This document shows positions 13,664 to 45,830 of a stretch of DNA of 64,000 bases, one piece after another (within the stretch, counting starts at the first letter, position 1; each line of letters opens with the position of its first letter). Source of the DNA: Octopus vulgaris (taxonomy: Eukaryota). The notes under the pieces are model-generated. The model saw only the letters and a list, made by a program, of their open reading frames with translations. It had not been told where the DNA came from and made no database searches. The stretch is from contig OX597819.1 in the NCBI GenBank assembly GCA_951406725.2, positions 120,962,001 to 121,026,000 of the forward strand, written 5' to 3'. Position numbers and translations under genes: made by a program.

Positions 13664-13667
<4 letters not shown>

Positions 13668-14010
13668 AATAATTGAATGAATTATCTTATTAAGGATAAT
13701 TCGAAAGATAACCGATACCTGGGTAGCAAATTCACATCAGAAAGAACACGGTTGAAGCTACGTCCCTAGGGCATAGACTACGTGTCTTCGTGCGGAAATT
13801 TGTATGTTTATTTTTAAATTATAAGTATATGAAAGAATGGAGTTAAACGACTAGTTAACAAATATACTTTATTCTCGACATATGTTTCGAAGGCTGCATA
13901 TTCCTAATTCCGAAGGAATATGGAGTACATTATGCAGATTTCTCGTCAAGAAAATCAAGGAACTTATGTCGACATCAAAATGCACAAAAACTTTTAGCTG
14001 ACCGCTCTCA
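13664..14010 (-). mobile_element. Hammerhead-bearing repeat family H2 flanked by (TA)n
   Basis: Homologous to 44982-45186; contains the ribozyme motif at 13871-13955. Confidence 0.7.
13871..13955 (-). ncRNA. Type-I hammerhead motif with long stem II and GUC cleavage triplet
   Basis: attttc-TTGACGA-gaaatctgcata...tatgcagccttc-GAAA-catatg-TC-gagaat: 6-bp stem I with one G-U, palindromic stem III ACATATGT. Confidence 0.7.
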
Positions 14011-14019
14011 ATACTTATA

Positions 14020-14077: not shown

Positions 14078-14485
14078 GCAGGAGTGGCTGTGTTAAGTAG
14101 TTTGCTTACCAACCATATGGTTCCGGGTTCAGTCCCACTGCGTGGCCTCTTGGGCAAGTGTCTTCTACTATAGCCTCGGGCCGACCAAAGCCTTGTGAGT
14201 GGAATTGGTAGGCAGAAACTGAAAGAAGCCCGTCGGATATATGTATATATGTGTATGTGTATGTGTGTGTATATGTTTATCTGTTTGTCCCCACCCCAAC
14301 ATCGCTTGACAACCGATGCTGGTGTGTTTACGTTCCAGTAACTTAGCGGTTCGGCAAAAGATATCCATAGGTTAAGTAATAGGCTTACAAAGAATAAGTC
14401 CTGGGGTAGATTTGCTCGACTAAAGGCGGTGATCCAGCATGGCCACAGACAAAAAGCTGACACAAGTAAAAGAGTAAAAGAGAGA
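14078..14485 (+). mobile_element. SINE family A, full length
   Basis: A box tggctgtg, B box ggttcagtccc, internal (TA/TG)n tract, tail ggcggtgatccagcatggcc...gtaaaagagtaaaaga. Confidence 0.9.
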
Positions 14486-44189: not shown

Positions 44190-44741
44190 CATATATACAC
44201 ACGTGCGTATGTATGCATGTATAATAGATAGGATATGAGGCAACATTTAACATTTCTAGAAACTTTAGCTTTTATCAGTGTCTAATACTTCGGAATCTAA
44301 CATACAACACCCACCTGATTGATATGACTTTTACTAAGCATATCTGCTTTTTTTTTTCTTTTGAAAAAATTTTTTTTTGCAATTTATATCTTACTTTATT
44401 TATGGTTTTTACATTCGTATTGTAATTTTTTTCTACATGTGCTACTACGCTTCGTTTCTGTGCTAATGTTCTTTGTTAATATGAAGTATTTTTTTTTCTT
44501 TATCATCTTAATTACATGATAACGGTTAGGCGATAAGGGCTCCGCGATAAGGTTTATACAATAATGGTTGCATGATAATGCTTACACGATAAGAAGTTGA
44601 AAGTTAAAATGGATTAGACATTTTTACGTTTTCCAGTTAATGTTTTGTATGTTTTCTAGCTCTTTTTATTGATATTTATATGTTTATTTACTAATATATT
44701 TATTCCTAAAATTTCGTTCGAAACACTATATAAGATTTTAA

Positions 44742-44968
44742 ACTTCTAGATTTTGGGTAACCACAGAAGATTTTACTGCTTGTCATACAGAATCATCCAC
44801 AAAGCCTATGTTATTAGTAAAATACAATAGTTTTTAGTTCTAGAATTTGGGTAACCACAGAAGATTCAACTGTCTCTCCTTCAGGTGCATTTATAATGCC
44901 TGTTATTTGTTAAATACAGTAGTTGTTAATGCGTAGATTTTGGGGGTATCACAGAAGATTCTTATTGC
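44742..44968 (+). repeat. Diverged ~94-bp tandem repeat, about 2.4 units
   Basis: taga(a/t)tttggg...cacagaagatt recurs at ~44747, 44841 and 44934. Confidence 0.8.
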
Positions 44969-44981
44969 CGTATATATATAT

Positions 44982-45225
44982 GTTTAAGTAGTTGAATGAA
45001 TTATCCTAGTATGGATAATTCGGTTAACCGATACCCGGGTAGCAAATTTACGTCAGAAAGCACGGTAGAAGCTACATGCCAAGGGCAGAAATCACGTGCT
45101 TACGTGTGGAAATTTGTGTGTTTTTTTACTATAGATAAATGAAAGAATGGAGTCGAACGACGATTTAACAAAATTCATTTATTCTCCGATTTTGTTAAAT
45201 CGTCGTTCGACTCCATTCTTTCATT

Positions 45226-45228
<3 letters not shown>
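44982..45228 (-). mobile_element. Family H2 copy ending in a perfect 40-bp hairpin
   Basis: Homologous to 13664-13876; arms 45135-45174 and 45189-45228 are exact reverse complements. Confidence 0.85.
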
Positions 45229-45297
<69 letters not shown>

Positions 45298-45326
45298 GTA
45301 TATATATATATATATATGTATATATA

Positions 45327-45506
45327 TGTTTTTTTTCTCTGTGTATCTTTCTGTTGAAGAGCGTAGGCTCGAAACGTTAAAGACTTGTTTTATTTATATT
45401 TCCTGAGCGCCATACTAATACAATTGTTTGTTTGTTTTCCACCTGCCTTCGTCTTTTGTCTATTTTCATAAAGCTTCCCGTTATATATATATATACATAT
45501 ATATAC

Positions 45507-45540
<34 letters not shown>

Positions 45541-45830
45541 GTGTGTATATATGTATATATATATATATGTATATATATATATGTATATATATGTATATAT
45601 GTATATAACGGGAAGCTTTATGAAAATAGACAAAAGACGAAGGCAGGTGGAAAACAAGCAAACAATTGTATTAGTATGGCGCTCAGGAAATATAAATAAA
45701 ACAAGTCTTTAACGTTTCGAGGCTACGCTCTTCAACAGAAAGATACACAGAGAAAAAAACAACACAGAAAGAAGGAGAGAAAAAATGCGTGCAGTAACTA
45801 ACGAATCAACATGGCGATCTGATTTCGGCC
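45327..45830. mobile_element. Tail-to-tail pair of H1 copies around a (TA)n core
   Basis: 45327-45487 and 45602-45761 are reverse complements with about 2 substitutions; hammerhead motifs at 45346-45383 (+) and 45706-45743 (-). Confidence 0.9.

Follow-up and report, generated by a model that had tools for sequence, protein, structure and literature searches.

The hairpin at positions 44982-45228 of the window, the whole 64,000-nucleotide stretch of Octopus vulgaris DNA analysed here, belongs to an element family whose insertions normally consist of two arms placed head to head. Judged by sequence motifs, it represents the 3′ end of a Penelope-like retroelement (PLE) of Hydra-like type. The outer ends of the two arms are fixed, the arms share sequence variants, and at this locus the long arm ends at the predicted cut of a hammerhead ribozyme and is followed by two extra bases. 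The favoured reading, with a probability of about 0.55, is that the (TA)n ends of a target prime at two fixed sites of the element RNA, that the two cDNAs are joined, and that the long arm stopped here at the end of a hammerhead-cut RNA. A sequence-only reading had taken the locus for a fossil of ribozyme cleavage, in which reverse transcription ran to the cut end and then switched onto its own cDNA; that interpretation is partly supported. Taken singly, the hairpin locus is a real feature, but an ordinary one.

The hairpin locus and its element

The features of the hairpin locus and of a longer copy in the window are collected in Table 1. Element positions are counted from 0 (45186), the base with which the predicted 3′ cleavage product begins; positive positions run into the ribozyme, on the RNA 5′ side, and negative positions lie on the RNA 3′ side. 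The element RNA corresponds to the minus strand of the window at 44980..45186. S1-S4 are subfamily labels of this analysis, and L numbers denote loci.

Table 1. Coordinates of the hairpin insertion and of the longer element copy in the window
Feature	Position	Strand	Basis or detail
Longer single-arm copy, subfamily S4, element positions about -212 to +136	13664..14011	-	97% to S4
Predicted core of a type I hammerhead in the longer copy	13877..13949	-	Core UUGACGA for CUGAUGA; GAAAC-AUAU-GUC
Short (TA)n flank; putative long-arm priming site	44971..44981	.	Sequence
Arm A, the long arm, covering -206 to 0 of the element	44980..45186	-	97% to subfamily S1
Arm-A segment pairing with arm B, positions -51 to -12	45135..45174	+	Exact arm match
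Two extra bases CG, matching neither arm	45187..45188	.	Locus L138; MH -2; partner end -12
Short inverted arm B, positions -12 to -51	45189..45228	+	Exact arm match
(TA)n-rich tract; putative arm-B priming site	45229..45329	.	Sequence

The paired segments are perfect inverted complements over 40 bp, with zero mismatches and a 14-nt loop, and the TA tract follows directly, as had been described. Arm A begins at the same outer element position (-206) as most copies. It ends exactly at the predicted hammerhead cut and is followed by CG, with no microhomology at the join. Arm B starts 12 nt back, so that the last 12 nt of arm A are not copied, and its outer end (-51) is the second fixed end of the element family. 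The earlier description of a turn, within 2-3 nt, into an inverted copy of the preceding bases is right about the 2-nt gap and overlooked the skipped 12 nt. At 44728-44960, just upstream of the insertion, sit three degenerate tandem units of 94 bp.

The sequence-only reading had aligned the hairpin copy with 13664-13876; the alignment is recovered at 79% identity and stops at 45186. The two copies belong to different subfamilies, S1 and S4. Close copies of the hairpin copy (97-99% over an 87-nt query) continue with GAC, the complement of GUC, as the earlier reading had noted for the longer copy, and the register of the cut is therefore correct. Beside the longer copy lies a repeat (14080-14235) that we take to be tRNA-like and SINE-looking.

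The cut in the longer copy is predicted between 13877 and 13876. The hammerhead and cut position claimed earlier are found again, in the longer copy and family-wide. Among 147 motif copies from the fetched loci, the common form has CUGAUGA, a long stem II with a 6-bp base, GAAAC-AUAU-GUC, and a stem I of 4-6 bp with an extension beyond an internal loop. Changes between subfamilies preserve pairing. A search of the window against Rfam yielded no hammerhead among the matches listed (150 of 300), only microsatellite-driven miRNA matches. Metazoan PLE hammerheads are recognised by CUGANGA and GAAA in the core, by stems I and II together with a short stem III and its palindromic loop, and by an NUH cut (PMC4209133). 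The octopus motif has the core, the stems and the predicted NUH cut of this type I form and shares the 1-bp stem III with palindromic loop, a form that requires dimers and cleaves poorly in vitro (PMC4209133).

Arms of this family number in the thousands across the genome. A single 29-mer matches exactly at 396 places in the 2.8-Gb assembly, and looser patterns reveal several subfamilies. Several near-intact ORFs of 690-934 aa are present among L445-L464, with a long Asn-rich linker replacing the usual Zn-finger linker. They lie on the ribozyme strand, carry YRDD and a C-terminal IYQC..YIG..E..N region (motifs by eye), and represent a single ORF with RT as well as a GIY-YIG-type C-terminal endonuclease, continuous with the 3′ end. 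Pfam gave no relevant match for the two ORF fragments searched. A partial-tandem pseudo-LTR (pLTR) lies directly upstream of the ORF in 6 of 20 long loci (L445, L446, L449, L450, L457 and L460), and an inverted 5′-truncated copy with two alternative ends is found at 48 of 85 loci. All three features are those expected of EN+ PLEs.

Features of the Hydra clade are shared in part. DKT occurs in the N-terminal part (L445, L446, L449-L452, L454-L456 and L464), CxxC and CxH surround the conserved endonuclease E and N, and insertion is into (TA)n. Of the strings called B-arm flanks, 75 of 107 end in (TA)n, a few 'other' rows in this count being misfiled A arms; A-arm flanks are likewise (TA)n. The RWK motif reads RWL in L446, L449, L450 and L451, and CxCX5C has left no trace before the endonuclease in any long ORF, where the linker is Asn-rich. 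Because of these two departures, the family is not placed inside the Hydra clade.

A second, different element lies next to the hairpin insertion, as a 98.7% inverted pair (45331-45485 and 45604-45758) with a hammerhead-like motif. Its TA-rich tract is central, not outside, and seven further related pieces occur in the window. It is probably another PLE family.

Two arms with fixed outer ends

The architecture sample consists of the first 100 of the 396 29-mer matches, picked blind to sequence beyond the anchor; after removal of 4 duplicates it comprises 85 loci. These contain 48 A+B head-to-head pairs, 1 A+A pair, 15 A arms only, 19 B arms only and 2 other arrangements. The two-armed insertion is the normal form of the family. 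Arm A has its outer end at about -206/-201 and arm B at about -56/-51, about 150 nt apart. The long arm that bears the ORF may be either arm (L446 and L464 versus L447, L460 and L461). Ends of arm A in the start zone of arm B (-59 to -57) account for 5 of 95 partner ends.

At 275 of 292 polymorphic sites the two arms of a pair carry the same base, where about 170 would be expected at random; this points to a single RNA, or a single source copy, as the origin of both. They diverge by 3.4% on average (242 of 7120 sites). This divergence is unlike an assembly artefact, and so is the fact that 48 of 85 loci repeat the layout with both of its outer ends. A fold-back read or a mis-join beside a microsatellite might be suspected at a hairpin flanked by TA tracts, but is very improbable here.

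The earlier proposal that reverse transcription was primed next to the TA tract is supported. In the favoured reading, the endonuclease would cut a (TA)n site, and each 3′ end of the cut site would prime at one of two internal sites, both arms being copied from one RNA or from RNAs of one source copy. At the hairpin locus, arm A would have run off the cleaved 5′ end (0) and received the untemplated CG, and would then have jumped to, or been end-joined with, the 3′ end of the sister cDNA (B, ending at -12). Across the family, microhomology would usually mediate the joining of cDNA 3′ ends, which would in some cases follow a run-off that adds extra bases, and most templates would be uncleaved and continue towards a likely transcription start at +153.

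The switch of reverse transcription onto its own cDNA fails as a mechanism for the family. Arm B outruns arm A in 33 of 48 pairs, and in 13 of the 48 arm A ends before arm B begins, leaving no overlap; B therefore cannot generally be a copy of A's cDNA. A version confined to single loci would have one cDNA reach the cleaved 5′ end, prime itself, copy 40 nt back and then join the TA tract. Such a snap-back would account for an arm B that is identical to arm A and wholly within it; B is no longer than A in 15 of 48 pairs, and R2 is known to form such junctions occasionally (PMC11331408). But arm B of the hairpin stops at the second fixed end of the family, as do the arms in the 33 of 48 pairs that a snap-back cannot produce, and base pairing is absent at the turn. 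Rare variants are mostly unshared between arms (24 shared, 213 not), a weak and little informative point against it, most unshared ones being later mutations. Snap-back is improbable overall; it could still apply to the hairpin copy because B lies inside A, and nothing here requires it.

The perfection of the hairpin arms had been read as a sign of a recent event. This was rejected: 27 of 71 arm pairs are identical over the same stretch (-51 to -13), and perfect arms hold no age information.

Three further observations concern single insertions or their flanks. At L057 (the same place as L183), a 20-nt insert between the arms matches the start of the element ORF, which suggests that the template RNA ran past the -206 start into the ORF. 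The flank opens with (AG)n or (ATAG)n runs repeating the arm's first bases in 13 of 107 B-arm flanks (L010, L018, L027, L028, L043, L075, L114, L441; L020, L097, L164, L270, L287). These runs look like telomerase-like RT stutter at the start site, and some of the flanking microsatellite may be RT-made. One short hairpin insertion is present at three places in a 190-kb stretch (L258, L260 and L261), as either a segmental duplication or an assembly repeat.

Arm ends at the predicted cut and upstream of it

Arms breaking between -16 and +17 were selected with patterns blind to position, covering 100 of 139, 100 of 144 and 74 of 74 matches, and all 116 for S3. Left out were 15 S1, 5 S2 and 7 S4 rows (by eye indels or later ends), the last 51 listed S2 rows (by eye one end at 0, with 1-nt microhomology) and 26 S3 rows, among which inspection by eye shows one or two clean ends at 0. 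Of the 193 + 88 matches, 41 forward-resuming ones and 3 segmental duplicates were dropped, and 3 loci from a targeted search were kept out. The resulting set holds 207 ends with an identified partner within ±16. A first, loosely anchored pattern (1242 matches) mixed subfamilies and is excluded from the counts.

Raw ends within this range form no sharp peak at the cut: 10 lie at 0, 15 at +7, 14 at -11 and 13 at -6. Weighted ends number 11.9 at 0, 11.0 at -6 and 10.1 at -14, with a mean of 6.4. Ends occur at every position from -17 to +17, and the first blind sample, of 118 arms, contains no stop at 0. Most joins carry 2-4 nt of microhomology. More ends lie left than right of the cut (114 versus 75), a difference confounded by short B arms. 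A sharp breakpoint peak at GUC, which would have supported the sequence-only reading, is thus missing; the sharp peak lies at +153/+154 instead.

This spread of ends suits the simplest alternative, in which the same two cDNAs are joined and arm A stopped at the cut by chance, as truncations do elsewhere. Against it stand the ends that lack microhomology. Within ±16, 10 of 77 such ends lie at 0, versus 2.6 expected after correction for base composition (p 3e-4; p 1e-3 with one double locus counted once), the microhomology-free criterion having been chosen after the first sample had been seen. The excess is present in both samples: in S1/S2/S4, 7 of 51 clean ends lie at 0 (p 0.002), and in S3, where the replication is borderline, 3 of 26 do (p 0.06). 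All 10 ends at 0 lack microhomology, versus 67 of 197 elsewhere. About a quarter of the clean ends at 0 are expected as background even so; cleavage would account for the other three quarters or so, provided that the excess is real.

A control at +12, which is also a C|G step, gives 30 matches genome-wide versus 40 at the cut. Taking the first 30 of the 40 cut matches and all 30 at +12, microhomology is absent from 18 of the 21 ends identified at the cut and from 10 of 23 at +12 (p 0.005). The cut set counts four loci twice; by events the figure is 14 of 17. The last bases are copied again after the end in 5 of 29 cases at the cut, 0 of 29 at +12 and 8 of 44 at other positions, which is suggestive only.

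Short hairpins supply the second line of evidence against a chance stop. Among 110 with both arms past -9 (by eye), five have both arms exactly at 0, with 1, 1, 2, 2 or 5 extra nt; away from 0, there is a single symmetric clean join at each of -2, -3, -6 and -7. Double ends at 0 with 1-2 nt between them are sterically impossible as an intramolecular fold-back. Nine further events have one arm at 0, and in eight of these the partner ends at or short of 0. The hairpin had been called a single instance, and at least 14 insertion events among the short hairpins have an arm end at 0 (by eye). Near-symmetric clean partners accompany 5 of 10 ends at 0 and 11 of 182 elsewhere. The TCGA palindrome at the cut renders several joins ambiguous, and four hairpins symmetric about it are left uncounted. 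In at least four events with an end at 0 (L468, L478, L486 and L173), the partner arm runs past the cut, and one cleaved RNA therefore cannot yield those.

Cleavage would in any case be rare. A stop at the cut with a next base other than G is found in 9 of 1038 arms matching a 23-mer (about 0.9%; 57 matches, of which 55 distinct ones were checked, plus 981). Most templates are therefore uncleaved, and the low number also suits a chance stop. The clean-end excess and the five double ends modestly support rare in-vivo cleavage family-wide. The run-off at a ribozyme-cleaved 5′ end proposed earlier accordingly keeps a modest excess of clean ends and loses its sharp peak; for the hairpin copy itself, the excess is no proof of cleavage. 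On balance, a chance stop is a tentative alternative, less probable than the stop at a cut RNA. That the genome records PLE hammerhead cutting in vivo with the 3′ product still inserted (about 1% of arms), and also inverted repeats arising from double priming at two fixed internal sites of one RNA and from cDNA-cDNA joining, stands at roughly even odds.

The pile-up at +153/+154 was counted on loci pooled from all searches up to that point. Of 82 arms reaching +144, 17 end at +153, 8 at +154 and 2 in the next seven positions, and 31 continue. It often involves both arms (e.g., L051, L100, L114, L129, L142, L151 and L176). The site is presumably initiator-like, and we take a palindrome about 35-40 nt upstream to be a CRE. 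The position is likely the pLTR transcription start. Two other explanations were rejected: a second hammerhead at +153 has no CUGANGA upstream (by eye), and a cap-templated extra C, which follows 8 of the 17 ends at +153, is explained by the partner arm in nearly all cases.

Comparison with known systems

In twin priming of L1, the second strand of the target starts synthesis at an internal site of the RNA, which produces an inversion; the second site is variable and the arms barely overlap. In the octopus family both sites are fixed and the arms overlap widely.

The insertion structure, the ribozyme and two start sites are already known for PLEs. EN+ PLE insertions are drawn with an inverted copy and a one-sided tail of 30-40 bp (Craig et al., PMC8557442). 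The octopus family shares with them partial-tandem pLTRs, an inverted 5′-truncated copy adjoining the upstream end, a tail at one end, a hammerhead in the pLTR and (TA)n targets, but its fixed ends lie about 150 nt apart instead of 30-40. Its likeness to the Hydra clade of that paper, drawn from motifs alone, covers the single ORF, the C-terminal endonuclease, DKT, CxxC/CxH around E/N, (TA)n and a canonical hammerhead; RWK and CxCX5C there contrast with RWL and an Asn-rich linker here. The passages of PMC8557442 drawn on here contain no statistics on breakpoints and describe as open how the inverted structure arises.

The Penelope/Poseidon protein cuts and extends both strands in vitro, with two internal starts matching genomic ends (PMC11167929). 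Poseidon PAc of the green anole (Frangieh et al., PMC11167929) thus shares with the octopus family two internal starts, extension of both strands, AT-rich targets and mostly uncleaved RNA. In PAc, the starts are 111-118 nt into the ORF and are separated by roughly the length of a tail, whereas one octopus start lies about 35 nt before the ATG of the ORF and the other about 150 nt further upstream. In PMC11167929, no RNA-seq reads end at the cut of its element, and cleavage is dispensable for insertion; PAc thus gives no in-vivo sign of cleavage there, unlike the modest signal in the octopus family.

For R2, untemplated bases at genomic junctions mark run-off at a 5′ end made by an HDV-like ribozyme (Eickbush et al., PMC3774820). 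The octopus family shares this junction signature of a run-off end with untemplated bases, but in R2 it marks full-length copies, whereas here it is found in about 1% of arms and with a different ribozyme.

A search of the open-access literature found no report of arm ends at a PLE hammerhead cut or of double priming for PLE inversions. The role of the PLE hammerhead and the origin of the inverted repeats are called open in PMC8557442, PMC4209133 and PMC11167929. Short two-armed insertions of the octopus family number in the thousands and carry three fixed landmarks, namely two RT starts and one likely RNA start; with the ribozyme cut as a faint fourth, both questions become testable. The value of the system lies in its modest family-level signal, not in the single locus.
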